Shown: positions 9,001 to 61,967, counted from the first letter of the stretch. The stretch: 64,000 nucleotides of DNA from a virus (IMGVR_UViG_3300042291_001013); one strand, 5' to 3'. Numbers and translations: made by a program. The notes: generated from the sequence alone by a model not told the origin.

Positions 9001-9686
9001 ACATTGCTTTGTTTGATTATCCAGTCATACAATGTTTGTGCAATTAATTCGTGACCTAGTTCATTTGGGTGGCTACACTCACGCAAGTATTGATTTGGTG
9101 ATCTCTTTGAAAAATCTATTGGAGTTTCATACCCAAATAGTTGTAAACAAGATTTGTGATATATTTTATCAGTATCAATCCCAGGCAAGTTTAAATTAAC
9201 ATCATTCCATCCAACAATGTAATAATCTTTTATTTTGTATTGTCGGCATATTGCTTGCATGCTCAACACATTTTTGTGTAGATTAAAGTTAAGTGTAGAA
9301 ATTGAAGTAAAATGCTTTACATAATTTTTAGAAACTTCATCAATTTGATTGGCTCCTAAATCAACAACTTTAAAACCATCAAGGTCTTCAACACCAAAAA
9401 TAGTTTTAGTTTCATCTATAGGAGGACGGAGATCATCTAATAGTATGCATTCTCTCGTAGGGGTAGTGATTAAAAAAACTGCTATAGAATTTTCTAAAAG
9501 TACGTCTGTACGTTTAACATAGTCAAGCAGTTGCAACACTGATCTGCTGTTGCTGGATCCGCTTATCCCTAAATTAACAAAATTGGTTGCGGATAATTTA
9601 GAAGACAGCCGTGCTCCAAATGAATCTGTTTCTAGAACGCCAAGGCCCACAGTCCAACTGCATCCAAAGACTGCTAATGCAGTCAT
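8991..9686 (-). CDS. SGNH/GDSL-like hydrolase or acyltransferase (1 of 6)
   Basis: VFGCSWT block I, GISGSSN block II, HPNELGH block V; visibly AT-rich. Confidence 0.75.
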   Translation of the reverse strand: MTALAVFGCSWTVGLGVLETDSFGARLSSKLSATNFVNLGISGSSNSRSVLQLLDYVKRTDVLLENSIAVFLITTPTRECILLDDLRPPIDETKTIFGVEDLDGFKVVDLGANQIDEVSKNYVKHFTSISTLNFNLHKNVLSMQAICRQYKIKDYYIVGWNDVNLNLPGIDTDKIYHKSCLQLFGYETPIDFSKRSPNQYLRECSHPNELGHELIAQTLYDWIIKQSNVQS

Positions 9687-10006
9687 ACCCTAAAACTTTC
9701 CCCGCAGCCACATCGATCTCTCTCATTGGGATTTGAAAATTCAAAGCCTTCGTTAAGGCCTTGGCGCACATAATCTACTGTCATGTTTTGAAGATACACA
9801 TTGTCTTTTTGATTTACTAGCACAACAAACTCTGGCTGTGCATAATTGATAACATACTGTTCTGATGTGTATTCCTTGACATACTCTAACACATAAGCAA
9901 GTCCGGAGCAACCTGTGGTCTTAACCCCAAGACGAATGCCAGCGTAGTTCTTGGCTGTGACAAGTTTTTGTATTTTGTTTCGGGCAGTGTCAGTGAACGA
10001 GATCAT
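9683..10006 (-). CDS. iscA: A-type Fe-S carrier protein IscA/HesB
   Basis: TTGCSGLAY and RCGCGESF motifs. Confidence 0.95.
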   Translation of the reverse strand: MISFTDTARNKIQKLVTAKNYAGIRLGVKTTGCSGLAYVLEYVKEYTSEQYVINYAQPEFVVLVNQKDNVYLQNMTVDYVRQGLNEGFEFSNPNERDRCGCGESFRV

Positions 10007-10376
10007 GCTTTTTGCGATAGTCTTCTACCGCGGCCTTGATAGCGTCTTCTGCTAGGATTGAGCAATGTATCTTAACTGGCGGGAGGGCAAGCTCTTCAGC
10101 AATCTCTGAATTCTTAATCGCTCCCGCGGCGTCGAGCGACATTCCTTTAACCATTTCGGTGATGAGCGAGCTTGAAGCAATTGCTGAGCCGCAACCGTAA
10201 GTCTTAAATTTTGCGTCCGTAATAATGCCATTTTCTACTTTGATTTGTAGTTTCATTACGTCGCCGCAAGCAGGTGCGCCAACCATACCAGTACCAATAT
10301 CAGTATCACTCTTGTCAAAAGAGCCGACATTCCGGGGATTTTCATAGTGATCAATTACTTTGTCTGAGTATGCCAT
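9990..10376 (-). CDS. iscU: Fe-S cluster scaffold IscU
   Basis: MAYSDKVIDHYENPRNVG, GAPACGD, GCGSAIAS and LPPVKIHCS; all three Cys present. Confidence 0.96.
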   Translation of the reverse strand: MAYSDKVIDHYENPRNVGSFDKSDTDIGTGMVGAPACGDVMKLQIKVENGIITDAKFKTYGCGSAIASSSLITEMVKGMSLDAAGAIKNSEIAEELALPPVKIHCSILAEDAIKAAVEDYRKKHDLVH

Positions 10377-10377
10377 A

Positions 10378-10692
10378 TTAGATCCTTATCAGCACTTCTT
10401 GGTAAGCACCGTTGACCAGGATCCATTGCTTGCGATATGCAAAGCCGTCAATGTAAACTATGTCTGTGGGAGGTGCAGAGACCATTGGGGGTTGCTGTAC
10501 AACAACAGGTGGGCGAGTAATTGCATAAACCACTGCACCGCCGATCAAGGCAGGGCCAACCCAGCCCCAGCCGTTGCCGCCATGGCGGTGATGGTGATGT
10601 GGTGTGTGCAATGCGGAGCCGTGATATCCATTGGGTCCAGCAAATGCTGTGGTAGCGAAAAAAACTAGTACAAAAATTAACAGTTGTTTCAT
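10378..10692 (-). CDS. Secreted or membrane His/Gly/Pro-rich protein
   Basis: Signal peptide ending AFA, HHHHRH stretch, hydrophobic segment, Pro-rich tail; AGGAGG SD. Confidence 0.7.
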   Translation of the reverse strand: MKQLLIFVLVFFATTAFAGPNGYHGSALHTPHHHHRHGGNGWGWVGPALIGGAVVYAITRPPVVVQQPPMVSAPPTDIVYIDGFAYRKQWILVNGAYQEVLIRI

Positions 10693-10712
10693 ATCAGCCT
10701 CCTATGTAAAGC

Positions 10713-10741
10713 AGTATACAATATTTAACGTTTTAGGTCAA
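10713..10741 (-). promoter_or_regulatory. Sigma70 promoter TTGACC-17-TATACT for the Pro-rich protein/iscU/iscA operon
   Basis: -35 at 10736-10741, -10 at 10713-10718. Confidence 0.8.
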
Positions 10742-10761
10742 TCTTTTGTTGACCCGTTTGA

Positions 10762-11124
10762 TTAGATGTTGCGATCTTTTTTGGCCGCTGATTTGGCCGC
10801 AGCCGCCACAATGTCTTGAGCTTTGTTTACTGGCATTGGGACTGGTCCTTGTCCGGCACCTTTGAATTGGATCATCCCAGTATTGGGATCCAAGGGTTCT
10901 AAAATATTATTGAGTGGAGGTTGATTAATGATATCAGGCAAATTGTCAGCAGTGACGTTTATGTCCAGATCCTGTGCCAGTTTGATAAATGCGTCTTGGC
11001 TGATTTGTTTCTGTGCGCCGGTATCGGAGGCCCGCCCATCCAAGAAATTTACCAACCCCATCAGTGCATCTGGATCTGGAGTTGGCATAGGAGGGCCAAT
11101 ATCGGCTACCTCAAATATTTTCAT
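10762..11124 (-). CDS. Putative internal head or virion protein
   Basis: 120 aa; N-terminal MKIFE (I-x-E) motif. Confidence 0.6.
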   Translation of the reverse strand: MKIFEVADIGPPMPTPDPDALMGLVNFLDGRASDTGAQKQISQDAFIKLAQDLDINVTADNLPDIINQPPLNNILEPLDPNTGMIQFKGAGQGPVPMPVNKAQDIVAAAAKSAAKKDRNI

Positions 11125-12056
11125 TATCTCTTGGCGCGGCCCAAGGCAGCGGCTGCTGGTTCGGCACCAGGTTCAATTGGTTCGGCGGCCATTTCGTCAC
11201 CTGCGGCAGCCATGTCTGCTTCAGCACCACCCATGTCAGCACCGGCAGCGGCCATGTCAGCGCCAGCAGCCATGTCAGGTGCAACCATGCCAGCATCAGG
11301 TGGAGGTGCTGTGCCAGTTACCACGCCCAAGGCCGCGTCAAGCTGTTGCTTGGTACCTTGGAGATTTTGTAACAATCCTGTTAGTGCCGCAGTAGCGTCA
11401 GTGTTGAATTGGGTAGCTTGGTCAATACCAACTTGATTCTTGATTGAGTCAACCAAGGCTGGTAGTTCTTTAAACTGTAGTTCTGATACGTCTTCCAACA
11501 TGCCTTGCATTTTATCAACCATGTCTTGAGCAGCCAACACAACTTGAGCCTGTTGAATTTCGCTTTCGTTTAGTCTGCGCATTGCTCTACGCAAACGGCT
11601 TTCGGCCTGCATCATTGCGGCGCCGGCCACTAGCTTTTGTTCTTCAGGATTCAATGTTTGACCAGCTGAACTCTTTTTAAGTGCGGCAGCTAGTTTAGGA
11701 TCTTTTGCAACAGCGCCAGCCACAGCAGGCGTACCACCAGCCACAGCAGCCTGTGGAGTTGCAGGAGCGGCACCAGCAGGAGCAGTACCTGTAGGTGGAA
11801 TGCCAACTGCTTCTCTGAGCTTGCTGTGCAATGCCTGTTCCATCATGACCAATTGAAGATACTGTGGATTACGCTCGCTGGTATGGCGTGCGCTGGTAGC
11901 TCTATGCTCACCAAGAATGCCACGCACCTTGACCAACATTGCCTGCGTTTGGCGGGGTGTTAATTGGTCAAAGCGAATGCGGCCACCAAAGTAACTTTCA
12001 AATACTTTGGCAATTTGCTTACTTGGCGTTGGGGCCGATAGTTCTTGCAGTTTCAT
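11124..12056 (-). CDS. Putative prohead core/scaffold-like protein
   Basis: 310 aa; MKLQE start, LREA and LNESE motifs, coiled coil, acidic Ala/Pro-rich tail; TAAATA and GAGGA upstream. Confidence 0.6.
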   Translation of the reverse strand: MKLQELSAPTPSKQIAKVFESYFGGRIRFDQLTPRQTQAMLVKVRGILGEHRATSARHTSERNPQYLQLVMMEQALHSKLREAVGIPPTGTAPAGAAPATPQAAVAGGTPAVAGAVAKDPKLAAALKKSSAGQTLNPEEQKLVAGAAMMQAESRLRRAMRRLNESEIQQAQVVLAAQDMVDKMQGMLEDVSELQFKELPALVDSIKNQVGIDQATQFNTDATAALTGLLQNLQGTKQQLDAALGVVTGTAPPPDAGMVAPDMAAGADMAAAGADMGGAEADMAAAGDEMAAEPIEPGAEPAAAALGRAKR

Positions 12057-12504
12057 TATTGAATCCTCTAATTTGTATATATTTAGCTTGGTTTACACAT
12101 TTTTCAAGTTCGGTTGATACACTGTTGTATCGATCAATCTTGGTTTGTATTTTGGTATTTACTATCTCGTAAAATACCTCGTGTTTGCCACGCTCGCCCA
12201 TGCTTTTTCTTGTGTAAATGTCTGCCGCTAATGCTTGTTTTTTACGGTCTAAAATCAAGATCAAGTTGGCCAGGTTGTACTGTTGACAATTGTCGGCACT
12301 GCACCAAGCCAAGGCTGCTCGCTTGCTGACAAAATTGTGTATTACTCTATCCCATGTTCTAACCACATGATCAGTGGCAGTGCTTTCAATGTAGTATCTG
12401 CCAAAGGCAATCAAGTCGCCTTTGTCATCGGTAATGATGAGATTGTCAATATTTTTACGAAGTTCGCGCTCGGCGAAACGTTCAAATTTTTGATTTTGTG
12501 TCAT
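12019..12504 (-). CDS. Hypothetical protein
   Basis: 161-aa ORF in the late operon, ATGA-coupled to the upstream gene. Confidence 0.7.
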   Translation of the reverse strand: MTQNQKFERFAERELRKNIDNLIITDDKGDLIAFGRYYIESTATDHVVRTWDRVIHNFVSKRAALAWCSADNCQQYNLANLILILDRKKQALAADIYTRKSMGERGKHEVFYEIVNTKIQTKIDRYNSVSTELEKCVNQAKYIQIRGFNNETARTIGPNAK

Positions 12505-12764
12505 TTAAATACGTAGTGAGTAAGCAACCAGCCCACTGTTGCTGTCAAAGCACCAATTACGCCAATGCCCCAGTTGATCAGTTGATTGTTGCGTTGTTCA
12601 CTCATTCGATGCACCATGCCATGTACTATTTTGACATCTGATTTGATCTCATCAATACACAAAATCATGGAGTCTAATTGTAGTTCCAGCGCTCGGTAAC
12701 GTTCAGCACACAATTCAACGTGTGCTTCCAAACTTTTCTTTTCAATGTCAGTTGTGTCTACCAT
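12501..12764 (-). CDS. Coiled-coil protein with C-terminal transmembrane helix
   Basis: 87 aa; heptad pattern followed by WGIGVIGALTATVGWLL. Confidence 0.65.
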   Translation of the reverse strand: MVDTTDIEKKSLEAHVELCAERYRALELQLDSMILCIDEIKSDVKIVHGMVHRMSEQRNNQLINWGIGVIGALTATVGWLLTHYVFK

Positions 12765-12766
12765 GA

Positions 12767-13198
12767 TTACTCCAATATATTATTTATTGATTCAAACCAA
12801 ATATTTTGATCTGCGCCCGACACAACAATGGTTGGGGCAAGGCCAGACTGTTCATTGAGATTAACAATCATGGGCACACCATTGCAATCATTTTTGAGCC
12901 CAATAAAACTGTCTTTGTGTCCAGACTGCCCGAACACACTTTCACTTTCACTAATAAACTCAAATTGCCAAATACCGTCCGTGCAGGCTGGCTTTGTGAT
13001 GTCCATGGGCTGTGTGCGCAGGCCAAAGATCTGCATCAAGGTTTCCCAGTTGCGCTGTTGATTACGACTGTGATTCCAGTTTTCCTGGCTGCTCACAGCT
13101 TGACCAGCTTGGTCCTGAAACGGAATCTCACTGGGTCTAAAATGACCAGTGACACCAGTATAGGTACAATCAAATTTTGTTTTACATAAGATCTTCAT
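12767..13198 (-). CDS. Hypothetical protein
   Basis: 143 aa; TAAATA lies 7 nt before the ATG. Confidence 0.7.
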   Translation of the reverse strand: MKILCKTKFDCTYTGVTGHFRPSEIPFQDQAGQAVSSQENWNHSRNQQRNWETLMQIFGLRTQPMDITKPACTDGIWQFEFISESESVFGQSGHKDSFIGLKNDCNGVPMIVNLNEQSGLAPTIVVSGADQNIWFESINNILE

Positions 13199-13223
13199 CT
13201 ATGGATATTTAAGGCCAAAGGAA

Positions 13224-13250
13224 AACCCTGGAGTTTTTAATTCCAGGGTT
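13224..13250 (-). terminator. Rho-independent terminator
   Basis: AACCCTGGA/TCCAGGGTT inverted repeat followed by T residues on the minus strand, just downstream of the 135-aa gene. Confidence 0.75.
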
Positions 13251-13270
13251 AGCGTGGTTAACTAAACTGA

Positions 13271-13678
13271 TTACAGGTTAGTGAAGCTGGCTGTAGCAGA
13301 AACGTTGGCAGTTGGGATGCCAATGTTCAAACCACCAGTTGCGTTGGCTGTTTGAGCAGCCGCAACTAGAGTAGTTGTAGTGTACGCACCGCTTGGATAG
13401 ATAGCCAAGCTGATTGTACCAGCTGTAGCGCCGGCTTGGTAAAGTGCGATTGTGCCAAGTTGTTGAATCGAAGTCAACACGTTGTTCAAATAACCGTTTA
13501 CGTTACCAGCGTTGGTAAGTGCGGCGTTAGCTGTCAAAGTGAAGAAGTCAAGTTTTGGACCTTGAATTTGAACTGGACCTTGAGCGGCCACGTTGGCTGT
13601 GCCAGCGATGGAACCGTTTGCTACGTCGATTGCGAATGACGGTTGTGTAGTACCGTTTACTTTTGTGAAAATTGCCAT
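13271..13678 (-). CDS. Putative capsid decoration or small structural protein
   Basis: 135 aa, Ala/Thr/Gly-rich with biased codons; has its own TAAATA, AGGAG SD and terminator, suggesting high expression. Confidence 0.6.
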   Translation of the reverse strand: MAIFTKVNGTTQPSFAIDVANGSIAGTANVAAQGPVQIQGPKLDFFTLTANAALTNAGNVNGYLNNVLTSIQQLGTIALYQAGATAGTISLAIYPSGAYTTTTLVAAAQTANATGGLNIGIPTANVSATASFTNL

Positions 13679-13739
13679 GTTAAAGCTCCTTAATATATGA
13701 CCTTATCGGGTCTGCTTTTATTTAGTCAAAACGGAAAAA

Positions 13740-15641
13740 TCACGCCTGTTGAGGATTATTTTGAGCACGATTTTGTGCGGCAAATGCATTGGGATCAAAG
13801 CGATTTACTGCTTTGGCATAGCCTGCAGGGGTGGCCATGACCCAGCCTTCTTGTCCCGGATGCTCTGTGTCGGCTTGTTTCAACAGGTACATTTTAACAT
13901 CGTGCAACAGAATAAACGCGGTAAATGCTGCCGCAAGACCTTGTTGGTTAGATGTGGGACTTTGCAGGTATTCCACAATGTTGCGGAACTTGCTGGGAGT
14001 GACTTTTGTCTGTAGCCAGTCGCCAAACTCAGGCAATAGTGTAGCACCGTTTAGTGGAGTTCCCACTTTGGTATTGATAAAGTCCACGCACAACTTTGCT
14101 AGATCTGTGATCTTGTGTGCTCGTAGTTCAGCAGGATTGAACAAGGTGTTTATATTGTTGCCATCATTCTTGATAATAGCCTTGAGCTGTTTTTCTGCGT
14201 TGGTTTCAGTTTGTAATGCACGTGGGCTAGCTGGCTTTTCCAACATCAGGCCTGGTACTTGGTTAAAGCCTACTCCACTCAAGGGCTGTCGTGCTTCGCC
14301 AACATCTGCGTACATTGAGTGAATAGCAATGCCAATATTACTGTTGCCAATGCGTTGTCCCAACGCACTCTTTGCTGGAATCTTGTACTCTATAGTATTG
14401 GGCTTGAACACATAGTTGCCAGAAATCACAGGAGGTGTATCCATATACAACAAGTCGCCCTTGACATAGCCTCTAAAGCCCTGGGGCAAACTGGCTTCCA
14501 GCACAGGGAACAGTTGTGAATATAGATTGATCAGTTCAGTTCTGTCACCCGAACGTCGGCTCTGTATGTTGGCCATCATCTGTGGGCTAGTGGCAAGACC
14601 ATCATAGCCCTTGGCTTCAAAGCCGGATCCATCTGTGAGCACAAACTCACCTGTGGCGGGCTTGCGTCCAAATATCACAGCAGGCTTACCGTCCCATTTG
14701 GCTGTGACTGTACTGGGTTGTTGTGTGGAATGTTGCACAATTGCCAGCGCATCCTTGATGCCCTGTGTACCACGACGGAACACAAGATCTTCCAAGTGTT
14801 CAATGCCCTTGGCCCTGCCACCCACTCCTGCTTGTTCAGCTTCAACCAAGGCAACATAGCCGCGGTTTACAATACGGTCACGCAGTCGGGCCAGGAAGTT
14901 TGCATCACTTTCGGCCATGCCTGTTTGTGGTTCTTGTAGGCCTTCACGTTTGAGATATTCTCTAAAGTCTGCTAGCTTGGCATCACGGTCGGGGTCATTG
15001 GCCAGCGCCGCATAGATGCTTTCAACGTTTTGCAAATTGCTACGATCAGCACGTCCGCCCAGCAACCACTTTGCAGTCTGATCAGGATCCACGCTGACAA
15101 CTTCGTTGGTGGTGCGGCTTATAACGCCATTGGCACCAACTTTGAGTCCTAGTTGTTTGGCAATTGAACTCATGAGCACATTGCGGTTCATGCCTTTGTA
15201 GACAGAATTAGCGCCACCGCCATAGTAAAAAATACCCCACTCTACATTGGGGAAGAACATGAAATCAGTTTGTACATAGCCCTGATTGGGATCACCATTA
15301 ACAGGAGTTCTAAAATGCACTTCGCCAGCTTTCTTGACCCACTCACGTGGATCCAAGCCTTGGCTGGTCACATACTGTGTGAGCAAATTTGCCAGTTGTT
15401 CTTTTGTGACTTCGTTGGAGTCCACAGCAAGATCTAAATCGCCCGACGTGGGCTTTTTGCCTGTGCTACCCAACCAGCGGCCCGGAGTGTTGGTTAGTGA
15501 ATCAATTTCAGCTGAGAAGTTGATACCAGTCAGTGCTTCTAGCCACTGCACAGTTCCTGGGACGTCAGCCTGATTGATGCGCTGAGTCAGGGGTTGCCCC
15601 TGCTTGTCTTTGAATACGTTTCCGCCTTCTAGTAGTTTCAT
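13740..15641 (-). CDS. Fusion of a Pol-beta-type nucleotidyltransferase and a KxDG ligase-like domain
   Basis: LGSTGKKPTSGDLDL and QTDF in the N-terminal half; AKWDGKPAV, KGDLLY, EGWV and YAKAV in the C-terminal half. Confidence 0.65.
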   Translation of the reverse strand: MKLLEGGNVFKDKQGQPLTQRINQADVPGTVQWLEALTGINFSAEIDSLTNTPGRWLGSTGKKPTSGDLDLAVDSNEVTKEQLANLLTQYVTSQGLDPREWVKKAGEVHFRTPVNGDPNQGYVQTDFMFFPNVEWGIFYYGGGANSVYKGMNRNVLMSSIAKQLGLKVGANGVISRTTNEVVSVDPDQTAKWLLGGRADRSNLQNVESIYAALANDPDRDAKLADFREYLKREGLQEPQTGMAESDANFLARLRDRIVNRGYVALVEAEQAGVGGRAKGIEHLEDLVFRRGTQGIKDALAIVQHSTQQPSTVTAKWDGKPAVIFGRKPATGEFVLTDGSGFEAKGYDGLATSPQMMANIQSRRSGDRTELINLYSQLFPVLEASLPQGFRGYVKGDLLYMDTPPVISGNYVFKPNTIEYKIPAKSALGQRIGNSNIGIAIHSMYADVGEARQPLSGVGFNQVPGLMLEKPASPRALQTETNAEKQLKAIIKNDGNNINTLFNPAELRAHKITDLAKLCVDFINTKVGTPLNGATLLPEFGDWLQTKVTPSKFRNIVEYLQSPTSNQQGLAAAFTAFILLHDVKMYLLKQADTEHPGQEGWVMATPAGYAKAVNRFDPNAFAAQNRAQNNPQQA

Positions 15642-51440: not shown

Positions 51441-51979
51441 AATTTTGGACCCAATGATATATCTGAGATAGTTAAATTATTGGTCTGTGCTATTTCTAAC
51501 ATAGATACCAACGCTCCGGCCCAGACATTTACATCTGCGGCAGGTGGCACTGTTTTGTCAGCACTGGTTGCAATGTTGCCCGGTCGAACTAGAGTAATTT
51601 TTATACCTGAGCGACTATTTCGTATTTGACTTACCGCTTGTTCTAGTGTGGTTTTTTGTATTCTGTAAGCCATCATATCCAGTCCAGGCAATACACTCAC
51701 CGGATCTTGTGTCATCATGGTGCTGATGACCATGATGTGTTTACCACTACCTTTCCAACGCTGAACCATCTCAAACAACAATTCGGTCTGCGCATAGCCT
51801 GCTTGTGCGTTGTTTATAAACATATCACAGGGTTCTATTGCGTCGGCTATTTTTGGTATCACTCGTATGTTATGGCCTGTGCGGCGGCTTAGACTTAGTA
51901 TCTCGTGACCACGTGCTTGGTATTCGTTACCCAGTGCCTGACCTATTCCAGCTGTGCCGCCTGTAATTGCTATTTTCAT
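51437..51979 (-). CDS. Short-chain dehydrogenase/reductase
   Basis: TGGTAGIG, INNA and YRIQK (YxxxK); start 51979. Confidence 0.85.
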   Translation of the reverse strand: MKIAITGGTAGIGQALGNEYQARGHEILSLSRRTGHNIRVIPKIADAIEPCDMFINNAQAGYAQTELLFEMVQRWKGSGKHIMVISTMMTQDPVSVLPGLDMMAYRIQKTTLEQAVSQIRNSRSGIKITLVRPGNIATSADKTVPPAADVNVWAGALVSMLEIAQTNNLTISDISLGPKL

Positions 51980-52941
51980 TGATAGTAATCCCAAAGTTTA
52001 ATACCACGCAACTGATCTTGTGCATGTGTCCATGACTGTAGTTCAATTGTGTTGTCTCGATCCTGGCCCACTATGGATTTTAATTCATCTGGTACATCAG
52101 CAGTTCTTGTAAAATGATTATTGTACTTGACGTTTAGTACCTCTGGCTGTTCCAGCAATGCCCAGGAGTGATCAAGACCTTGCTGTTTTGTATATGCAAA
52201 AATATTCTTCAAGTTGCTGATATTTAACGAACTGACTGTGGTCCAGGTGTTTAGTTCTTGGATTCCCATGTTTCTGTATATGTCAAGATTTCGTTCAAAG
52301 TTTTCCCACTTGATAGGCCAACGCACATAATCATGAACACGTCCGATACCATCCAGGCTCACTGTGACTGTGACGTGTACGCCACGCTTGACCAGTTGCT
52401 GTATTTCTGGAATGACCATAGAACAGTTGGTGTTGATTCTAACGCTGACCACTGATGGAGGAATATTTTTAAGTATGTTGCGATAGTTTTTACTGGCACT
52501 GGGTTCACCACCATTAATATCCAAATGAACCACACGCTCTAATGGCAATTGCCAAAATGCCGCTGAGTTATCTACTATGGGATAGTTACTAGATATTAAA
52601 CTGCCTATCTTGGTGCTTAGATTTTGATTGCAAGATTGGCAAGCACTATTACAAATGTTGTCTAGTACCCCGCCAACAGTAAGATAGTCCAGGCGTGTTT
52701 GTTTTTTATCAAATTTGATAGCATTGAGTCTTATGCTGGTGTTGTTGATTTGTTCTGTTTGTTGACACCGCACACATTCCTTGGGCCATGTATCTGGATT
52801 GCTTTTGATATCACTTAACCAATCACTAGCGTTCATTTTCTCTATGGTATCAAACTCAGGTGGATTGACCATATGACCGCATCGACTCATGGTACCATTG
52901 GGATTAAATCTCACAAAGTGATCAAGTCTCGGGCAATACAT
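51976..52941 (-). CDS. Radical SAM protein with N-terminal twitch/SPASM-like domain
   Basis: MYCPRL..SRCGH; CNSACQSC; NGGEPS; VRWP. Confidence 0.87.
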   Translation of the reverse strand: MYCPRLDHFVRFNPNGTMSRCGHMVNPPEFDTIEKMNASDWLSDIKSNPDTWPKECVRCQQTEQINNTSIRLNAIKFDKKQTRLDYLTVGGVLDNICNSACQSCNQNLSTKIGSLISSNYPIVDNSAAFWQLPLERVVHLDINGGEPSASKNYRNILKNIPPSVVSVRINTNCSMVIPEIQQLVKRGVHVTVTVSLDGIGRVHDYVRWPIKWENFERNLDIYRNMGIQELNTWTTVSSLNISNLKNIFAYTKQQGLDHSWALLEQPEVLNVKYNNHFTRTADVPDELKSIVGQDRDNTIELQSWTHAQDQLRGIKLWDYYQ

Positions 52942-53548
52942 GTTCGATGATATTTTTATAATTTTTTTGATAGTAATCCAAGAGTTCGCTCCAGGTAAAT
53001 TCTTGACCAGCCAACTCTAAAAGTATTTGATCTAAATACAGCCACAACTCAATACCGTGATTTTCTTTAAACAATTCAGCAACAAAGTCTTTACTGGGCG
53101 GAATAACGTATGCTCTAGATTCAAAATCAGTTATTGCGCCAAAGTCTTTGAAGTTCCTAAAGCGTATTTTTGTATCGTTACGTAGATAACGAGAAAGATT
53201 TGCCAACCAGTGAAACTGGGGCAAGTAGTGTGTGTTTAAAAATTTATATCGCTTGGCAAACCAAAATGCTGTAGAAGAATCTAACTCAGGATAGTCGCGT
53301 TGAAGATGTTGCAGGTATGTGTTAATTCCACTGACATATCTGTCTCGGGGGTTGCGTATGTAGACATCCACATAGTCCAGCGCCAAAATCTCATGATTAC
53401 TAAACACCACGAGATTCTCTTTTTTTTGCTGATATCGCAAACTGGTGTTTCCGTTTTTTTGAATTAGATAAACCCATTGATTGTGAAGTGGTAGAGATAC
53501 CACTTCACATAGATTTGGAAACAATTCTGTATCCAAAGACGTTTTCAT
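52922..53548 (-). CDS. Sulfotransferase-like (P-loop) protein
   Basis: IQKNGNTSL (5'-PSB-like) and IRNPRDRYVSG (3'-PB-like) motifs. Confidence 0.6.
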   Translation of the reverse strand: MKTSLDTELFPNLCEVVSLPLHNQWVYLIQKNGNTSLRYQQKKENLVVFSNHEILALDYVDVYIRNPRDRYVSGINTYLQHLQRDYPELDSSTAFWFAKRYKFLNTHYLPQFHWLANLSRYLRNDTKIRFRNFKDFGAITDFESRAYVIPPSKDFVAELFKENHGIELWLYLDQILLELAGQEFTWSELLDYYQKNYKNIIEHVLPET

Positions 53549-54537
53549 TACTGCTTTTGACGTGCTCGGATCATGGCCAAGATATCTTGGGCGTTGCCAC
53601 CGGCCACCGGCTTGGCTACTGGAGCAGTAGCAGTTGCTGGCTCGTCCTCATCCCAGGCAGGTGTTTCTGCCGCCGGAGCAGGTGCGGCTTTTGCTACTGG
53701 AGCAGGTTTAGCTGGTGTATCCTCGTCGCTTGCGGCTGCACCAGCAGGTGCTTGTACACCAGCAGGACGGAAGTACTGACCCCAACGCTCAGTGTCGTAT
53801 GGCTGTCCATCTACACTTGCTTCAAACATCTCTTTGATGACTCGGAGCTCAACGTCAGTTGGCTTCTTGGGCAAGAATGTGCTCAAGTCAAACAATCCAT
53901 GCTTTTCAATCGCAGCCTGTTCAGCCTCTGTCAGTGCTGACTCTTTACGTGCCCACTTGGATCCGTTATAGTCAGCAAAACCGCCTTTGCTTCCTTTGGT
54001 GATACGGAAGTCCAGGCCACGCAAGTAGTCTGTTGGCAATTCTTCCAGTTCAGGATCCATCAAGGCGCCCTTGATAGTTGTAAAGATTTGTGGACCAATG
54101 ATGAATCGACGAATTGGATTCTCTGGAGTTTTGTCGTCACCCAGTGCGTTTTCGCGCACAAAGCCTTGGAAGATGTAACTGCGTTTCTTCCAGTACTTAC
54201 GACCCATGTCTTCAAGAGTCTTGTCCTTGAACCATGTGCGTACTTCTGCCAGGATTGGGCAGGCTTCCTGCCACATTTCCACGCAAGGTACTTGTACCAT
54301 GACTTGTTTGGATTCCATCTCTCCTTTGACACCGTTGAAGGGCAAACGAATCATTGCTCGTTCTTGCCAAAAGAAAGTGTTTTTAGAGTTACCGTCTGGG
54401 AGGAAGCGTAGTGTAGCAGAGCTGCCTTCTTCCATATTCCAATGCGGATAAATTGAGTTGTCGCCACGTTCAGTGGATTGACCACCTTTTGATTCTGCTG
54501 CCTGCAGTCGTGCGCGGATTTCTGCTAATGATGCCAT
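53548..54537 (-). CDS. Single-stranded DNA-binding protein (T4 gp32-like)
   Basis: LRFLP, CPIL, YWKKRSY, LDFRITK and YNGSKW motifs; acidic low-complexity tail. Confidence 0.92.
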   Translation of the reverse strand: MASLAEIRARLQAAESKGGQSTERGDNSIYPHWNMEEGSSATLRFLPDGNSKNTFFWQERAMIRLPFNGVKGEMESKQVMVQVPCVEMWQEACPILAEVRTWFKDKTLEDMGRKYWKKRSYIFQGFVRENALGDDKTPENPIRRFIIGPQIFTTIKGALMDPELEELPTDYLRGLDFRITKGSKGGFADYNGSKWARKESALTEAEQAAIEKHGLFDLSTFLPKKPTDVELRVIKEMFEASVDGQPYDTERWGQYFRPAGVQAPAGAAASDEDTPAKPAPVAKAAPAPAAETPAWDEDEPATATAPVAKPVAGGNAQDILAMIRARQKQ

Positions 54538-54720
54538 ATTGTGTTGCCTTTCTATGCGTTAATATGATTTTAAAATTTAAGACTTGCTTAAATGCTGCCT
54601 ACAAGGTTATTTTAACACAGCCTGTCTGTGTTTCCTACCTTTACGGTAGAGAATTTTGCCTAACTTGTTGTTTACGGAAGTGTGCGCTACTACACACACT
54701 TCTTTTATGCGTTTATTTAT
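54538..54720 (-). promoter_or_regulatory. Structured 5' leader of the gp32-like gene, downstream of ATAAATA
   Basis: Longest non-coding gap in the window; four stem-loops and repeated AGGCA motifs. Confidence 0.6.
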
Positions 54721-54721
54721 G

Positions 54722-56803: not shown

Positions 56804-56813
56804 GGTCGTGTAT

Positions 56814-58403
56814 TTAGCGCATTACTGAAATGAAGGGCATGGGCTCAACCACGTTGTCTGAGTGGTCTTTAAGGTGTGCGTCCAGGTCTGAGTGAAATGT
56901 TTGCAACATCATCAGCATGCGTGTGGCCAACAGACTGGCCATCACAAGATCATCTGTTTCCCCAATCTTTGCTTGATAACTAGCCCCGTTGGCCACAAAG
57001 GTTTTGAGCTCACTTACCAGGGGTTTGGAGTATATCTTCATGCGCCCAGATTCTACCAGGATCTTGAACTTGTTGCAGGCCACAATTTTACTTTTGTTTG
57101 TGGTTGTAAATCCTTTGCGGATTCTACGTCCTGAACTACCTTGTACTGAGTTGTCACTTAAGAAATAACCTGGAATGTTTTCTTCACCGTATTCTGCTAT
57201 GGATATCAGGGCCGCTTCTCCCAGCGTGTTGTTTTCCACACTGTAGTAGATGCTCTTGTTGTCTTTGACCACAGTGTGCAGTTCTTTGATGATGTCGGCC
57301 ATGATTTTAATCTGCGTTGGGACGTCAGTTTTGTTGTGCCGCCACTCTGCAATTTGTTCAGTGGTATCTGCTTCAAATACTTGTATAGCTGACGGATCTC
57401 CACCAGTACCCAAACTGGGGTCTAGTGCCACAATGTAGATGTGGTCTTTTTTGGGTTTGCGGTACCAGCGTACTTGACCAGTTTTTTCTACAGGTTCCAC
57501 ACCCTCAAGCTCTAGTAGTTTGATAGGCGATATCAGTGTTTCGTCATTGATCACAAAGTCGCAGTCCATCTCTCGACGGAAACGTTCGTCCCCAAGTTGA
57601 CTACGTTGTTCTTCTGCCCACTTGTCATCTCTATCTGGATGTTCACGCCAGAATGCTCTAAATGCTTTGAATCCGTTTATGCCCAGGCCATTGGGTCTTG
57701 GATTGCCAAACTCATCTTCAACTTTGTTGGCACCTTTCCAGATGTAAGCAAATTGATCCTCATCCGAGTTGGGGGTGCTTGTGATAATTGCCTTACCACC
57801 TGTTGACAGTGTGGGCGTAATAGAAGTCCAAAACTCTTTGGCAATTGTGGGTCGTACAAACGCAAACTCGTCTAGATACAGTAGCGTAATACTCATACCA
57901 CGACCGGTATTTTCAGTAGTTGTTTGACTAACAATACGTGATCCATTGTCAAACTCTAGAGAACCTTTGTTGTAGCTGGTAGCACCTGCTCTAATATGAT
58001 TGGGGCATAGTTCGTAAGCATACCGAATACGTTGCATGATCTCTTGTGCGCCCAGATATTTGTGTGCGGCAATAAGAATAGTTGCGTCAGGTACAAACAT
58101 TGCATACCACAACAAGTAACCAGCGGCACTAGTTGACTTGCCTGTTTGGCGTGGCATTAGTGAGATACTAAAACGATTTTGATGATAATTATTGATCAAA
58201 CGTTTTTGATATTCAAACGGATGATACAACATCTTGCCCCGAACAGGATGCTGAATATAAAAGAAGTTGTCCATGAAATACATGGCACCGTCAACCGGAT
58301 CTGCACAACGAGCAAAATCTTCTAGTTCTTGCTCGGTAAATGTTTCTCGTCGATGCGGTGCCTTGACCAGTACTGTGTCAAGTGTGTTTTTTGCGCCAAT
58401 CAT
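56814..58403 (-). CDS. terL: Terminase large subunit (T4 gp17-like)
   Basis: MPRQTGKS, YLDEFAF, STPN, ALDPSLG and DDLVMA motifs. Confidence 0.96.
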   Translation of the reverse strand: MIGAKNTLDTVLVKAPHRRETFTEQELEDFARCADPVDGAMYFMDNFFYIQHPVRGKMLYHPFEYQKRLINNYHQNRFSISLMPRQTGKSTSAAGYLLWYAMFVPDATILIAAHKYLGAQEIMQRIRYAYELCPNHIRAGATSYNKGSLEFDNGSRIVSQTTTENTGRGMSITLLYLDEFAFVRPTIAKEFWTSITPTLSTGGKAIITSTPNSDEDQFAYIWKGANKVEDEFGNPRPNGLGINGFKAFRAFWREHPDRDDKWAEEQRSQLGDERFRREMDCDFVINDETLISPIKLLELEGVEPVEKTGQVRWYRKPKKDHIYIVALDPSLGTGGDPSAIQVFEADTTEQIAEWRHNKTDVPTQIKIMADIIKELHTVVKDNKSIYYSVENNTLGEAALISIAEYGEENIPGYFLSDNSVQGSSGRRIRKGFTTTNKSKIVACNKFKILVESGRMKIYSKPLVSELKTFVANGASYQAKIGETDDLVMASLLATRMLMMLQTFHSDLDAHLKDHSDNVVEPMPFISVMR

Positions 58404-59124
58404 CCATTACTCTTTCTGCAAATATTTTGTGTCCTTCAGGACCAGCATGCATGTAGTCACGGGCATAGCCAATCTCTTCTCTACTGCGAGCAAAATAATC
58501 ATGTGCATTGTATGTTTGGCATTTGATGTCAAGCTCTGCACACAGTCCTTGCACTGCCAACTTGTTCTTTGCATTATTTAAGTCGGCATTGCGATCATTT
58601 ATCAACCACTGCTGTATGGCTCGGTCTGTGATATCAGTCTGGCCAGGCATATACGTGTTGTGCGGCCACTGAGAATCTTCAGTGATTAGATCAAACCTAT
58701 GTTTGGGTGGGGCACACATTACAACTAACCTGGGCAACAGCCGGGGAACCCAATATTTTGCCAACATAAAACAAGTGTCAGCACTGGCACCTCCCCACGA
58801 AAGATTATACACTGTGAGCTCTAACTCTTGTCCTACTAGTGTGGGCCATATGCTTTCTAAAGGTAATCCCATGCCAACACTGTAACTGCATCCTAAAGTA
58901 ACTATGCTGGCCGCACTGGGATCAAACTCTTCAGCTCTAAAACCATTTGAATTGATTTTGTATGTTATTGCTCGGGGCCTGTCCCATCCATGCCGGCGGA
59001 AATGCTCTTGGTGTTTTGGGTCTTGTAATAATTTCTGATAGTTTTCTTCGGTGTCAGTTGACAACCACTCAGTAGTCTGCCCCGCATACTTCATGCCAAA
59101 GTGCCAAGGTGCGTTATTTGACAT
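58378..59124 (-). CDS. SGNH-like protein (6 of 6)
   Basis: TLGCSYS, WGGASA and DYMHAGPEGH motifs. Confidence 0.72.
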   Translation of the reverse strand: MSNNAPWHFGMKYAGQTTEWLSTDTEENYQKLLQDPKHQEHFRRHGWDRPRAITYKINSNGFRAEEFDPSAASIVTLGCSYSVGMGLPLESIWPTLVGQELELTVYNLSWGGASADTCFMLAKYWVPRLLPRLVVMCAPPKHRFDLITEDSQWPHNTYMPGQTDITDRAIQQWLINDRNADLNNAKNKLAVQGLCAELDIKCQTYNAHDYFARSREEIGYARDYMHAGPEGHKIFAERVMDDWRKKHT

Positions 59125-60271
59125 CCGGTACCTCTTTTAATGCCACTGCCATGTCCGGCCATAAGTCTTCAAAGCGAGTTACTTTCTTTAGTTTTTGCTC
59201 AATGTCTCTGTGCCAATCAGTTACATACAAATCTCTATCCATTGGGGGCAAGTAACTGTTATCGTTCAAGGTTAACTTGTATCTTTCCAAGATATCAAGC
59301 GATATGTTTTGTTGTCCTTGATACTTGGTTAGAACAAGATCAATTTCATCTATAGCTTGTTGTCGAACATCCATGGGCATGCGTCTAATGTCCAGCTCTT
59401 GCGGATGGTTTAACTCGCACCAAAAAATATCCAAGCTCATAGACTGACAAAAATCATAGTACTCTGTCAAGTCCCAAGCACAATAAATGCTGTAAGCAGG
59501 ATGTGCTGTGACTCGTTGGTTGTCACGCTTCATTGTTTGAATGTTCTTAACAAATTGATTCCAGTCAGCACCATTGCGCACATACTCAAATTTTTGTTGA
59601 TTGGCGTTGTCAAAGCTGATCATCCAGCTGACTCGGGGCCATGTCTTTAGTTCTTGATAGATGGGATTGTTTTCAAGTTCCACGCTGAGGTTGGTTGTGA
59701 CCAGTACATTGACTTTGTTGGAATCAAGGTGTTTTAAAAACTCCCCAAGTCCTTTTTGTAACAAGGGTTCGCCACCGCCCAAAGTCAGCCCTTGTAAACT
59801 GTGTCCGTTGGTCTTGGCCAGTTCAATTAAGTCTTGATGTTCGTTGCGATCATGGTTGATAGGGATTTTCAGAGCACTTTGCCAAGCTGTGCTGGTTTCA
59901 GGATTGCAATAGGTGCAACTGAGATTGCAGAGATTGCTCCAGTTTACCACTAGGTGTTCTAGATCAAACCAGGATATATCATCATTGATTGCATCTATAG
60001 TCTTTTGATCTGCATGGCGCTGAGTGCGTCCACTGTGCCCAGTTGTATCTTCAAGACGTTTACACCATGAGCAAGCATCGTGCCATTTGCCGTCAGCCAT
60101 GTGTTGTTTTATGTCTTTGAGTTCGGGTCCGTGTATTACTTCTTGAATGGTGTTTTTCTTGATATTGCCCACAGATGACAAACAATGCATGCAAGGAGTA
60201 ACACGACCATTTTGGTCAATGTTGAGGCTGGTCCAGGGTGCAGGACAAAATGTAGGGCCGTTAGATATCAT
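59114..60271 (-). CDS. Radical SAM protein with N-terminal twitch/SPASM-like domain
   Basis: FCPAPW..PCMH; CNLSCTYC; GGGEPL; VRNG. Confidence 0.9.
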   Translation of the reverse strand: MISNGPTFCPAPWTSLNIDQNGRVTPCMHCLSSVGNIKKNTIQEVIHGPELKDIKQHMADGKWHDACSWCKRLEDTTGHSGRTQRHADQKTIDAINDDISWFDLEHLVVNWSNLCNLSCTYCNPETSTAWQSALKIPINHDRNEHQDLIELAKTNGHSLQGLTLGGGEPLLQKGLGEFLKHLDSNKVNVLVTTNLSVELENNPIYQELKTWPRVSWMISFDNANQQKFEYVRNGADWNQFVKNIQTMKRDNQRVTAHPAYSIYCAWDLTEYYDFCQSMSLDIFWCELNHPQELDIRRMPMDVRQQAIDEIDLVLTKYQGQQNISLDILERYKLTLNDNSYLPPMDRDLYVTDWHRDIEQKLKKVTRFEDLWPDMAVALKEVPDVK

Positions 60272-60825
60272 AGTGTTTTGACCCAGCTGTAGCTGGTGAG
60301 TCTAAATGTGTTTTTTGGCACAGGATTTAACATAGCATGCCACAGCAGGTTTCTGTAGCCGTCCGTGTTGGGTCTGTTGACCATGATGTAACCTGTGTTG
60401 GCTCGCATGGGAAACTGATGACGTTTGCTAGCAGGATCTTGGTACCAGTAAAACGAAGTCCCAAGGTCTTCGTTGGCTCCAATCCAGGTCAATTGCATAC
60501 TGCCCGGCATTTCGCCATCAGTGTGCATGGAGCAAGTAAAGCCGGGCTCATCAACCCACCATGCAGTGCCCATGTAGTCTTCTAATTCAAAGCCCACAGC
60601 GTTGCCAATGTCGGTCCATATGCGATGACAAGCCAGTTCCCACTCTATGATCCAAGGCAACACGTTGTCGTCGATTCTTCTGCGGGCCCAGCTTTCCTGC
60701 CCTTCTTGTCTGTGCCAAGGCAAGTCTAACCAAGGTGTGGCTAATATTTTGGCCACCAGTTCTGGGGGCATTGCATTGTCAACTCGATACAAGTTGGGTT
60801 CGTTATCAACAGGTGCTATTTGCAT
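60268..60825 (-). CDS. 2OG-Fe(II) oxygenase-like protein
   Basis: HTD...WHAM...RLTSY facial triad and 2-oxoglutarate-binding pattern. Confidence 0.72.
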   Translation of the reverse strand: MQIAPVDNEPNLYRVDNAMPPELVAKILATPWLDLPWHRQEGQESWARRRIDDNVLPWIIEWELACHRIWTDIGNAVGFELEDYMGTAWWVDEPGFTCSMHTDGEMPGSMQLTWIGANEDLGTSFYWYQDPASKRHQFPMRANTGYIMVNRPNTDGYRNLLWHAMLNPVPKNTFRLTSYSWVKTL

Positions 60826-61967
60826 AGGAACTCCAGTTCAGGCCAAAGTCGCACAAACTCACCTGCTTTGTCAGGATGGTATTTGTGTTCAATATCATAG
60901 ATGTGTTTCCAAAACGCAATATCAACATCAGATACTTTGACAATGTCCAGGCGCTCATTGTATGTTTTGAGTGCTTGATCAAAAAATACTTGTTCAGACT
61001 CTGTTACCAAGTTGTTGGCATACAAGTATTGTATTTCATCTGCGGCAAGTTTTGCAACACTGGCACCGTGAGTAAATGGATCCAAGTACTTGGGCTGGAA
61101 CAAGTTTTGCCACAAGATGGTTGTGTCTGTTTCCTGGGCAAATTGTTTTAGTTCACGCAGGCGTGTGGCATTGTAAATATTGTACACAGCATGTATGCCG
61201 CCCCAGTGCCCGTTGTTTTTCATCAAGTTTTTGACCACGGCTAGGTTATTCTGCAACATTGACCAAGAACCGCCATAACGAACATATTCAAAACGTTCAC
61301 CTACATTGTCAAAGCTCATGCTCCAGCCGACTCGTTTGCGCTGTGCTAGTTTCCGGAAGATTTTGTTTTTTTCTAAGTCAACATTCATGTTGGTGATTAG
61401 CGTAACAATAGCTGATTCTGGTATGACATCCAGTAATCGTTCATTTTCTGGCAGTAGTAGTGGCTCGCCACCTACCAAGGCCACTTCATGTATGTGACCA
61501 TGGTGTTGTTCGATGAAGTCACACACCTGTTCATAGTACGGACGAGAGCCTGACCGGAATGGTACCTGCTTTAATGCGGCCCACTTTGAGCTGGCACCAG
61601 GATCACAATAGTTACAACTCAAATTGCAAGTTGTATTCCAACGCACATCCACAATCACAGGATAGTGATACTGGTCCCCGGCTGTGGCATAATCAAAATT
61701 GGGGTTTACATTGTTGTGCCATTGGCGTTCTGAGTCTGCACCAAAACGTTCTGCCTGCACACAGTTTGAGCAGTATTCGTGTGCTTGACCTTGTGCAAGA
61801 CTAGTTCGCACTTCAGCCATTGTGCTGTTGTTTAAAACTTCCGTGATTGTGTTTGTGTTGAGGTTACCCAGCATGTTGGGGTTGCCGGCACAACAGGTTT
61901 TAACATCGCCACGGGGGTTTATGTGTAGGCCACGCCAGGGTGCGGCGCAGTAGAAATTATCGCTCAT
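60816..61967 (-). CDS. Radical SAM protein with N-terminal twitch/SPASM-like domain
   Basis: YCAAPW..GDVKTCC; CNLSCNYC; VGGEPL; VRYG; TAAATA 4 nt upstream. Confidence 0.9.
   Translation of the reverse strand: MSDNFYCAAPWRGLHINPRGDVKTCCAGNPNMLGNLNTNTITEVLNNSTMAEVRTSLAQGQAHEYCSNCVQAERFGADSERQWHNNVNPNFDYATAGDQYHYPVIVDVRWNTTCNLSCNYCDPGASSKWAALKQVPFRSGSRPYYEQVCDFIEQHHGHIHEVALVGGEPLLLPENERLLDVIPESAIVTLITNMNVDLEKNKIFRKLAQRKRVGWSMSFDNVGERFEYVRYGGSWSMLQNNLAVVKNLMKNNGHWGGIHAVYNIYNATRLRELKQFAQETDTTILWQNLFQPKYLDPFTHGASVAKLAADEIQYLYANNLVTESEQVFFDQALKTYNERLDIVKVSDVDIAFWKHIYDIEHKYHPDKAGEFVRLWPELEFLCK

Follow-up and report, generated by a model that had tools for sequence, protein, structure and literature searches.

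Radical SAM cassettes with an N-terminal twitch-like domain in an uncultured freshwater jumbo phage: separate modules that may tailor sugars

Introduction

Iron–sulphur (Fe-S) cluster assembly genes and multiple radical S-adenosylmethionine (SAM) enzymes have been described together in phages before. Marine phages encode IscU and/or an A-type carrier along with many radical SAM genes, as many as 12 in one T4-like genome of 183 kb, and the phage scaffold genes have been proposed to work for Fe-S proteins that the viruses themselves encode (Nishimura et al. 2017, PMC5332604). In pelagimyophages, a hypervariable host recognition cluster mixes glycosyltransferases, sugar-nucleotide genes and 'radical SAM cassettes' that are gained or lost between close relatives (Zaragoza-Solas et al. 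2020, PMC7029224). The subject here is a stretch of 64,000 nucleotides from a virus (IMGVR_UViG_3300042291_001013, analysed whole and called the window below), in which six paralogous radical SAM genes with an N-terminal twitch-like cysteine domain are found with iscU, iscA, metK and a range of sugar-related genes. These genes may well form several separate modules in which the radical SAM enzymes tailor sugars, a reading that we favour at evenly balanced confidence. The phages of the 2017 study are marine and T4-like, and the N-terminal-twitch architecture was not singled out there, whereas the present clade is a freshwater jumbo clade of ~330 kb with 10–16 members of one radical SAM family. 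The present cassettes, unlike those of the pelagimyophages, interrupt a replication, recombination and packaging backbone rather than a tail-fibre region, and do so in a different phage lineage. The pairing of phage Fe-S genes with many radical SAM enzymes is an already published theme (2017); the size and cassette organization of the N-terminal-twitch family in this clade, and its company of SGNH and carbohydrate enzymes in phages and bacteria, appear to be undescribed.

The window is a densely coding phage region, mostly on the minus strand, as judged from a listing of open reading frames (ORFs) and Pfam, NCBIfam and PHROG scans. Its backbone encodes a class I ribonucleotide reductase (nrdA, nrdB), a PD-(D/E)XK nuclease, a Toprim primase and helicases of the DnaB type and of superfamily 2. 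There are also recombination proteins that resemble UvsX, UvsY and probably gp32, a structural protein of the virion and a T4-type large terminase (terL), which is ~51% identical to its counterparts in PA5oct, Phosso and Atu_ph07, all jumbo phages. Among 50,697 phage records, megablast found no DNA-level match to the first 20 kb of the window, and a tblastn search with radical SAM protein 59114 (genes are named by their first coordinate; Table 1) yielded no more than weak matches to the core, in KVP40-like vibriophages. IMG/VR relatives with terminases 72–82% identical measure 316–347 kb, one of them with direct terminal repeats, and near-identical window sequence is present in 24 lake-water metagenome studies; a search for RNA runs listed none. 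On terminase relatedness, the size of these relatives and the lake studies, the source is taken to be an abundant uncultured freshwater jumbo phage. The window was compared gene by gene with the syntenic 60–80 kb of four near-complete relatives of 316–347 kb (G001–G004). Two relatives were also fetched whole, their ORFs called and iterated hidden Markov models (HMMs) built from the window families; the adjacency counts given below cover three genomes.

Separate modules on a conserved backbone

An initial annotation of the window had treated positions 9683–61967 as a single cofactor-supplied pathway that builds or decorates an unusual glycan. Gene order speaks against a single pathway. Conserved in order in all four near-complete relatives are nrdA, nrdB, the nuclease, iscA, iscU, the helicases and the primase, as are a GT8-like gene, a nucleotidyltransferase–cupin fusion, GT8 and its glycosyltransferase (GT)-like paralogues, and likewise uvsY, radical SAM gene 46012, uvsX, the gp32-like gene, terL and radical SAM gene 60816. 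Absent or patchy in the same relatives are a B12-type radical SAM gene, all SGNH-like genes, the GT17-like gene, a Methyltransf_24 pair, gmd, metK, radical SAM gene 47252 and the blocks 49733–53548 and 58378–60825. Synteny thus suggests that the span is a mixture of genes core to the clade and inserts, on both strands, that are specific to the strain. So read, the 52 kb are not one pathway but a backbone for replication, recombination and packaging into which accessory genes were inserted singly or in small cassettes, and the GT-like, Gmd-like, methyltransferase and nucleotidyltransferase genes never adjoin the radical SAM genes. By the same comparison the genes of interest fall into three layers: the clade-conserved iscU–iscA pair, a clade-conserved sugar and GT island with strain-specific additions, and the radical SAM genes, two of them conserved and four assigned to mobile cassettes with SGNH-, SDR-, sulfotransferase- and 2OG-like partners.

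The N-terminal-twitch radical SAM family

All six radical SAM ORFs are intact and lie on the minus strand, and the paralogues are 21–34% identical in pairwise comparison. Each protein has the CxxxCxxC motif, a GGE motif and four invariant cysteines ahead of the core (C15, C34, C73 and C76 in the numbering of 46012), with CxxxCxxC following at about residue 97–125; in an alignment of all six, C124, C128, C131 and G188-G189-E190 do not vary. The best match of every one is NCBIfam NF033640 (N_Twi_rSAM), and four exceed its curated cut-off of 170 bits. In three of the six, the Pfam SPASM domain matches at residues ~7–75. An auxiliary domain at the C-terminus is not apparent: only 1–5 cysteines follow the core, none of them conserved, and the auxiliary cysteines are N-terminal. 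To judge from these motif and profile matches, the N-terminal twitch-like cysteine domain that the initial annotation had noticed in six paralogues is real and belongs to an already curated family. The window proteins share with NF033640 the same architecture, a four-cysteine twitch-like domain N-terminal to the CxxxCxxC core; they differ in that NF033640 is curated by name only and two of them (47252 and 51976) score below the cut-off.

A tree of all radical SAM proteins from the window and two further genomes has deep paralogue lineages with tight orthologue pairs across genomes, which suggests that the paralogues are old and individually maintained enzymes, not recent duplicates. A profile built from 41 members retrieved 9,815 clusters (50% identity) at E<=1e-30, tandem double-domain proteins among them, and the nearest ESM Atlas clusters of the window family are 95–100% viral. 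The best profile matches are proteins of 750–1,450 amino acids with two or three complete N-terminal-twitch units, which could have arisen by tandem fusion in nature or by the merging of gene calls.

The AlphaFold model of 59114 has the radical SAM core fold (predicted local distance difference test, pLDDT, 88), and its top structural match is BlsE (Z 13.0). No solved structure with an N-terminal twitch architecture was among the matches in the fold searches. The BtrN, BlsE, DesII and AprD4 group resembles the window proteins in combining a radical SAM core with one auxiliary four-cysteine cluster, and the window genes have neighbours of sugar-tailoring types. The window spacing of ~C-x18-C-x39-C-x2-C presumably resembles that of BtrN as well; BtrN itself is absent from the match lists of the model. 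The window proteins differ from this group in that the auxiliary domain is N-terminal, not C-terminal, and the structural match covers the core only, at 12–18% identity. SuiB, SkfB, CteB and anSME belong to the same SPASM/twitch branch and rank equally in the fold searches; the window proteins differ from them in having the auxiliary cluster at the N-terminus and neither a RiPP recognition element (RRE) domain nor an adjacent precursor.

The initial annotation had found no convincing precursor of a peptide made by the ribosome and modified after translation (RiPP), and this holds. No RRE (PqqD-like) domain is among the Pfam and NCBIfam matches of the window radical SAM proteins, and precursor ORFs would not fit in: the sole gap of at least 40 nt within 45.5–62 kb is 54538–54721. 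The seventh radical SAM gene, described as B12-type, is less clear-cut. Its Radical_SAM match is above the cut-off, whereas its B12-binding match (28.5 bits) is below Pfam's 32.1, and its NCBIfam matches are all to generic class-B families and far below their cut-offs. No syntenic orthologue is present in the relatives.

Table 1. Genes discussed in the text, by position in the window (relatives are G001–G004 unless named; NF033640 scores are in bits)
Feature	Position	Strand	Family match	Distribution and context
SGNH-like	8991-9686	-	in family alignment	variable; beside iscA
iscA (A-type Fe-S carrier)	9683-10006	-	PF01521 E=3.3e-18, 66.4 bits	syntenic orthologues 50-61% in relatives
iscU (Fe-S scaffold)	9990-10376	-	PF01592 E=1.5e-52, 177.5 bits	83-90% identical in relatives
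Class-B-like (B12-binding) radical SAM	19957-21321	-	Radical_SAM 39.6 bits, above cut-off	strain-variable insert
SGNH-like	24339-25046	-		insert between conserved core genes; absent there in most relatives
SGNH-like	25043-25822	-		insert, as above
SGNH-like	26769-27476	-		insert, as above
Weak Methyltransf_24	28735-29319	-	22.6 bits, below cut-off	among the SGNH-like inserts in 24339-30044
SGNH-like	29319-30044	-		insert, as above
GT-A/GT8-like glycosyltransferase	34464-35204	-	phrog_1962 E=3.5e-20	47-59% orthologues in 4/4 relatives
GT17-like	35201-35983	-	PF04724 E=2.7e-19	strain-specific; no orthologue in relatives
Methyltransf_24, first of pair	35985-36653	-	PF13578 E=2.9e-6	strain-specific; no orthologue in relatives
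Methyltransf_24, second of pair	36634-37233	-	PF13578 E=5.6e-19	strain-specific; no orthologue in relatives
Cytidylyl/adenylyltransferase-like + cupin fusion (sugar-phosphate activation)	37257-38021	+	PF01467 E=2.6e-14; PF01050 E=1.2e-21; RfaE domain II 76 bits	61-76% orthologues in 4/4 relatives
GT8	38018-38707	+	Pfam match, solid	GT island
GT-like paralogue	38653-39516	+	weak match or paralogy (blastp)	GT island
GT-like paralogue	39513-40481	+	weak match or paralogy (blastp)	GT island
GT-A-like	40478-41197	+	weak match or paralogy	GT island
GT-A-like	41182-42009	-	weak match or paralogy	GT island
FkbM methyltransferase	41994-42641	-	Pfam	GT island
GT-like paralogue	42660-43487	+	weak match or paralogy (blastp)	GT island
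gmd (GDP-mannose 4,6-dehydratase)	43468-44562	-	PF16363 E=1.8e-121	variable
metK (S-adenosylmethionine synthetase)	44462-45562	-	all three MetK domains	variable
Radical SAM	46012-47259	-	NF033640 214.8	between uvsY and uvsX; conserved, syntenic orthologues 59, 52, 40%, also in tree
Radical SAM	47252-48421	-	NF033640 161.6, just below cut-off	variable single-gene insert; 42-52% orthologues in some contigs only
Five-gene mobile cassette	49733-53548	-		the five genes that follow
Radical SAM	49733-50893	-	NF033640 262.3	five-gene cassette
SDR-like	50895-51440	-		five-gene cassette
SDR-like	51437-51994	-		five-gene cassette
Radical SAM	51976-52941	-	NF033640 122.5, below cut-off	five-gene cassette
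Sulfotransferase-like	52922-53548	-		five-gene cassette
String directly upstream of terL	58378-61967	-		the four genes that follow; overlapping stops and starts
SGNH-like	58378-59124	-		string before terL
Radical SAM	59114-60271	-	NF033640 218.3	string before terL
2OG-like	60268-60825	-		string before terL
Radical SAM	60816-61967	-	NF033640 214.1	string before terL; conserved in relatives

Cassettes and their tailoring partners

Two groups of radical SAM genes travel with small enzymes. Of the 21 IMG/VR contigs found, 16 keep at least four of the five genes of the mobile cassette together, and identity to the query radical SAM protein goes down to 45% there; the cassette is rearranged in contig L126 (query radical SAM 42% identical) and absent from the four near-complete relatives. 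Its two proteins resembling short-chain dehydrogenases/reductases (SDRs), first annotated as such, are present as short Rossmann proteins of 181 and 185 amino acids with weak SDR matches. The string that overlaps its way to terL keeps its order in relatives in which the orthologue of 59114 is 64% identical, and its 58378–60825 block is absent or patchy in the near-complete genomes. Among the 49 relatives with enough sequence upstream of terL, at least one radical SAM gene lies within 3.5 kb upstream in 34, an SGNH-like gene in 20, and both in 17.

The six SGNH-like proteins of the window have no significant Pfam match, and the assignment made initially is nevertheless upheld by other means, with the reservation that 8991–9686 lies almost wholly outside the span then considered. 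In a 19-sequence alignment the family has an invariant G-x-S, a G-x-S-N block and a near-invariant histidine; an AlphaFold model has a pLDDT of 85, and its top 15 Foldseek matches in the PDB are all SGNH/GDSL enzymes (1ivn, E=2.9e-7). SGNH-like genes adjoin N-terminal-twitch radical SAM genes in six of 19 cases, where 1.8 are expected (p=0.006).

The large radical SAM cluster of the relatives is interleaved with a carbamoyltransferase gene, the sole neighbour that Pfam recognized. A denser version is found on contigs L155 and L156 (47 and 17 kb), where positions 1445–14078 hold eight consecutive radical SAM-type genes, a gene for a 262-amino-acid protein and a carbamoyltransferase.

Around these cassettes, the T4-type recombination set at 45570–54537 (UvsY-like 45570, UvsX-like 48675, probable gp32-like 53548) is broken up by radical SAM genes, and an acidic 86-amino-acid protein (48418–48678) is conserved along with the set. 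A staphylococcal-nuclease-like gene (61986–62510) precedes the terL-linked string, here and in relatives. The region is flanked by fibre- or depolymerase-like proteins, a pectate-lyase-like beta-helix (6337–8169, minus strand) and a YadA-head-repeat protein (62431–63657, minus strand).

Bacterial homologues

Members of the NF033640 family at E<=1e-30 were found in five of 401 Bacteroidota genomes, in one of them (G014, below) on phage-like contigs. Three loci (G093, G165 and G297) are clearly cellular, with two to four N-terminal-twitch radical SAM genes each and a GDSL gene in all three. The G093 locus, on a 1.46-Mb contig, comprises PhyH, WelO5-like, PhyH and methyltransferase genes, two radical SAM genes, an unknown gene, a type IX secretion system (T9SS) cargo protein with a Peptidase_S74 domain, and GDSL. 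In G165, GDSL and four radical SAM genes are found with a methyltransferase–GT2 fusion and a GT-C-like gene. G297 has a methyltransferase, a polysaccharide deacetylase, a GT11-like gene, two radical SAM genes, GDSL, a carbamoyltransferase and a second GDSL. From these neighbourhoods it appears that the partner families of the phage cassettes (SGNH, 2-oxoglutarate (2OG) oxygenase, methyltransferase, carbamoyltransferase and GT) recur independently in carbohydrate-type bacterial loci.

A 6.9-Mb metagenome-assembled genome (MAG) labelled 'Haliscomenobacter sp.' (G014) has 12 N-terminal-twitch matches above the cut-off. They are confined to contigs 1 and 3 (183 and 148 kb; NZ_JBBAKG010000001.1 and NZ_JBBAKG010000003.1), which carry the same radical SAM cluster as the jumbo phages. 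These contigs are probably co-binned jumbo-phage-like DNA and possibly a clue to the host. A scan of the genome collection with one radical SAM protein found only these two phage-like contigs.

Fe-S cluster and SAM supply

The family assignments of iscA, iscU, metK, gmd and the nucleotidyltransferase–cupin fusion are unambiguous, as initially annotated. N-terminal-twitch radical SAM genes occur in all 13 related records, 10–16 above the cut-off in each of the four near-complete genomes, and 12 of the 13 records have a single IscU with one or two IscA; the remaining record is a fragment estimated to be 33% complete. Four cultured phages with similar terminases yielded neither an IscU match nor an NF033640 member above the cut-off. 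The suggestion that radical SAM genes co-occur with iscU and iscA thus fits these records; for metK it does not, this gene being present in two of the 13 records and in two of the four near-complete relatives. Those two have the most radical SAM genes, which is an anecdote at n=4, and metK lies within the syntenic region in G001 only. Physical linkage of radical SAM genes with iscU and iscA was rejected as evidence, since the seven linked loci among 80 do not exceed the ~25–40% estimated from radical SAM gene density.

The supposed supply of cofactors by the phage is likewise partial: iscU and iscA stand beside a large radical SAM load, but other components are missing. No Aminotran_5 (IscS) match above the cut-off was found in the near-complete relatives and none is among the window Pfam matches; the same is true of Fer2 ferredoxins, and no flavodoxin was found in the relatives. 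HscA and HscB are not among the window Pfam matches, the relatives not having been searched for them. With no IscS, 2Fe-2S ferredoxin or flavodoxin in the relatives, the phage supplies an Fe-S scaffold and carrier only, and would have to lean on host IscS and reductants.

Among cultured phages, the T4-like phage C48C1 has the sole clearly phage-borne IscU copy, besides a handful of short or unannotated fragments. The INPHARED entry 'Acinetobacter phage MD-2021a' (CAKLQF020000009.1) is a bacterial chromosome, with iscR-iscS-iscU-iscA-hscB-hscA-fdx, mfd, ppiD and hupB. Directly downstream of iscU in window coordinates is a small secreted-looking protein (10378–10692, minus strand) with a hydrophobic segment and a His-rich stretch, HTPHHHHRH; it could bind metal, and a partial match is found in G004 only. 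Between or beside iscU and iscA, G001 (62180–63859) and G004 (289908–294230) have a conventional radical SAM gene, with CxxxCxxC near the N-terminus and a Cys-rich C-terminus; there is none at this place in the window.

The sugar island and the motif before it

Most genes of the GT island (38018–43487) have orthologues in all four near-complete relatives. The initial count of seven glycosyltransferase-like proteins becomes eight candidates, three of them solid (35201, 38018 and 34464) and five weak or assigned by paralogy (38653, 39513, 42660, 40478 and 41182). Of five methyltransferases proposed, four lie within the span (35985, 36634, FkbM 41994 and the weak 28735), and the fifth, a paralogue at 1020–1715, lies outside it. 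The gmd gene, absent at the syntenic place in the near-complete relatives, is present in the closer contigs L109, L111 and L120; with the listed TTG start it overlaps metK by ~100 nt and is matched by Pfam from residue 46 onwards, and the real start is probably further downstream.

The hexamer TAAATA is the core of the T4 late promoter. Twelve of its 33 copies in the window lie 10–40 nt upstream of a same-strand start, compared with 0–16% for composition-matched hexamers. Copies of the hexamer include 61972–61977, 56811–56816 and 42649–42654 on the minus strand and 37246–37251 on the plus strand, and the starts that they precede include those of the string from the radical SAM genes to terL (10 nt before 60816), structural gene 54722, the GT operon and FkbM. 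For five copies the distance to the start is only 10–13 nt, implying that leaders are very short. The full T4 late promoter octamer, TATAAATA, occurs once in the window, 13 nt upstream of the nucleotidyltransferase–cupin fusion, and no more often than by chance.

Initiating phosphoglycosyltransferases and flippases (PF02397 Bac_transf, PF00953 WecA/MraY-type and PF01943 Wzx-type) are absent from the four near-complete relatives and the window, which argues against a self-contained surface-polysaccharide route. Together, the late-promoter-like motif and the lack of lipid-carrier and flippase genes give a weak hint that expression is late and that the acceptor is cytoplasmic, for instance virion proteins.

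Proposed function and alternatives

Given the carbohydrate-type bacterial loci, the missing RRE domain and the lack of room for a precursor, sugar tailoring is favoured over protein or peptide modification as the task of the N-terminal-twitch enzymes, at a confidence that leaves it about as open as settled. The iscU–iscA pair would help to mature the phage's many two-cluster enzymes, with the sulphur donor, chaperones and reductant for assembly coming from the host. The sugar island would contribute the nucleotidyltransferase–cupin fusion, GT8 and at least five GT-like genes, with gmd, GT17 and methyltransferases as strain-specific additions here. Within the cassettes, the radical SAM enzymes would travel with SGNH-like, short SDR-like, sulfotransferase-like and 2OG-like tailoring enzymes. 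Each radical SAM enzyme would cleave SAM at its CxxxCxxC cluster and then abstract a hydrogen from a sugar carbon, the four-cysteine N-terminal cluster serving electron transfer as in BtrN-type twitch enzymes, and the product might be a keto, epimerized or deoxy sugar. Neighbouring reductase-, acyl-esterase/transferase-, sulfo- and hydroxylase-like proteins could then elaborate this sugar further. The acceptor would probably be cytoplasmic, most likely a virion protein glycan, because the relatives lack lipid-carrier initiation and flippase genes and a late-promoter-like motif stands ahead of a cassette that runs into terL. A bolder form of this proposal is tentative at best: that the mostly viral family performs radical tailoring of virion sugars, producing a strain-specific 'radical-edited' virion glycan by means of 10–16 enzymes per freshwater jumbo phage and their cassette partners of SGNH, reductase-like, carbamoyl-, sulfo- and hydroxylase types, with the phage's own IscU and IscA keeping the enzymes loaded.

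Several points weigh against sugar tailoring by a shared set of enzymes. In the adjacency counts, none of the 21 GT-like, eight Gmd-like, nine methyltransferase or five nucleotidyltransferase genes adjoins a radical SAM gene. Independent support for the carbohydrate function first proposed comes from the three Bacteroidota loci; the cellular survey covered that one phylum. Neither the 2OG oxygenase (60268) nor the sulfotransferase-like protein (52922) of the initial annotation has a Pfam or PHROG match. Both genes are present, and both calls are weak: the former comes from an HxD...H motif and language-model neighbours with PF13640/DUF6445, the latter from neighbours with PF03567 (neighbour scores 0.94–0.95). 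At the genome level, the co-occurrence of IscU/IscA with radical SAM genes amounts to one evolutionary contrast, not independent replicates, and C48C1 has IscU without any N-terminal-twitch radical SAM gene. A structural and HMM search of the paralogues, as had been suggested, yielded the NF033640 family; the fold searches with the 59114 model matched only the generic core (residues ~100–345) at 12–18% identity, with no specific solved homologue. BlsE, DesII, anSME, MoaA, SuiB, PFL-AE, SkfB, CteB and viperin are tied at Z ~12–13, and as these include both sugar or nucleotide and peptide enzymes, structure does not separate the two kinds of substrate. No paper specific to the N-terminal-twitch family was found, nor a substrate for any member. 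Finally, most characterized SPASM/twitch enzymes act on peptides or proteins.

It may be, then, that the radical SAM enzymes cross-link, epimerize or oxidize residues of virion fibre or capsid proteins, and that their SGNH-, 2OG- and sulfotransferase-like neighbours add further protein modifications. SuiB, SkfB, CteB and anSME among the structurally nearest solved enzymes would fit, as would the cassette strung onto terL, the fibre-like proteins nearby (YadA-head repeats at 62431, pectate-lyase-like at 6337) and the fibre-chaperone domain (Peptidase_S74) of the T9SS cargo protein in the G093 locus. This explanation is nonetheless doubtful, given that an RRE domain and a precursor-like small ORF are both missing, with no space left for the latter, and that carbohydrate-active partners (GT2, GT11-like, GT-C-like, CE4 deacetylase, carbamoyltransferase and GDSL) overwhelmingly prevail in the bacterial loci.

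A second alternative differs from sugar tailoring of virions in target only: the genes may remodel the host surface (O-antigen or capsule) during infection and so block superinfection, as has been proposed for related pelagimyophage gene sets (PMC7029224). A conserved GT core with variable additions does resemble the diversification of O-antigen loci. We consider such a target improbable, as the four near-complete relatives have no initiating phosphoglycosyltransferase or Wzx-type flippase, and the GT operon and the terL-linked cassette both stand behind late-promoter-like motifs.

Slightly less probable still is that the genes share no function, being unrelated accessory genes accumulated in a large genome, with IscU and IscA serving host Fe-S proteins or other phage Fe-S enzymes. 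The genes are indeed scattered and variable, radical SAM–GT adjacency is nil and radical SAM genes are not enriched near iscU; however, divergent relatives have inherited the cassettes as units, bacterial loci contain the same partner families again, and the paralogues are old and individually conserved. Hypermodification of phage DNA with glycosylated or decorated bases, by the sugar genes and some radical SAM enzymes, as a means of evading restriction is very unlikely despite the position of the genes inside the replication and recombination module, since no DNA-base-modifying family was detected in the window (the one hint being an insignificant HMUDK_hel match, E=0.0076) and the bacterial homologues lie in polysaccharide-like, not DNA-modification, loci.

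Significance

Virus-encoded glycosylation of virions is known from the chlorovirus PBCV-1, which has its own GMD, from mimivirus fibrils and from mycobacteriophage capsids. Under the favoured reading, in which radical SAM enzymes tailor sugars, the present phage would resemble these systems in that the virus encodes its own cytoplasmic GTs and sugar-nucleotide enzymes but no lipid-carrier export machinery; to our knowledge, none of the three involves radical SAM enzymes.

The analysis corrects a tempting reading of 52 kb as a single pathway. NF033640 is curated by name only and yet huge in metagenomes, and its old paralogues, cassettes and bacterial carbohydrate loci narrow the search for its chemistry, for which the five-gene cassette at 49733–53548 is a small, tractable entry point. 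If the products decorate virions, virus-encoded glycosylation would extend to radical chemistry; and if the virion-glycan reading is true, both the virion modification and the radical carbohydrate chemistry would be new, the former as a class and the latter as a branch.

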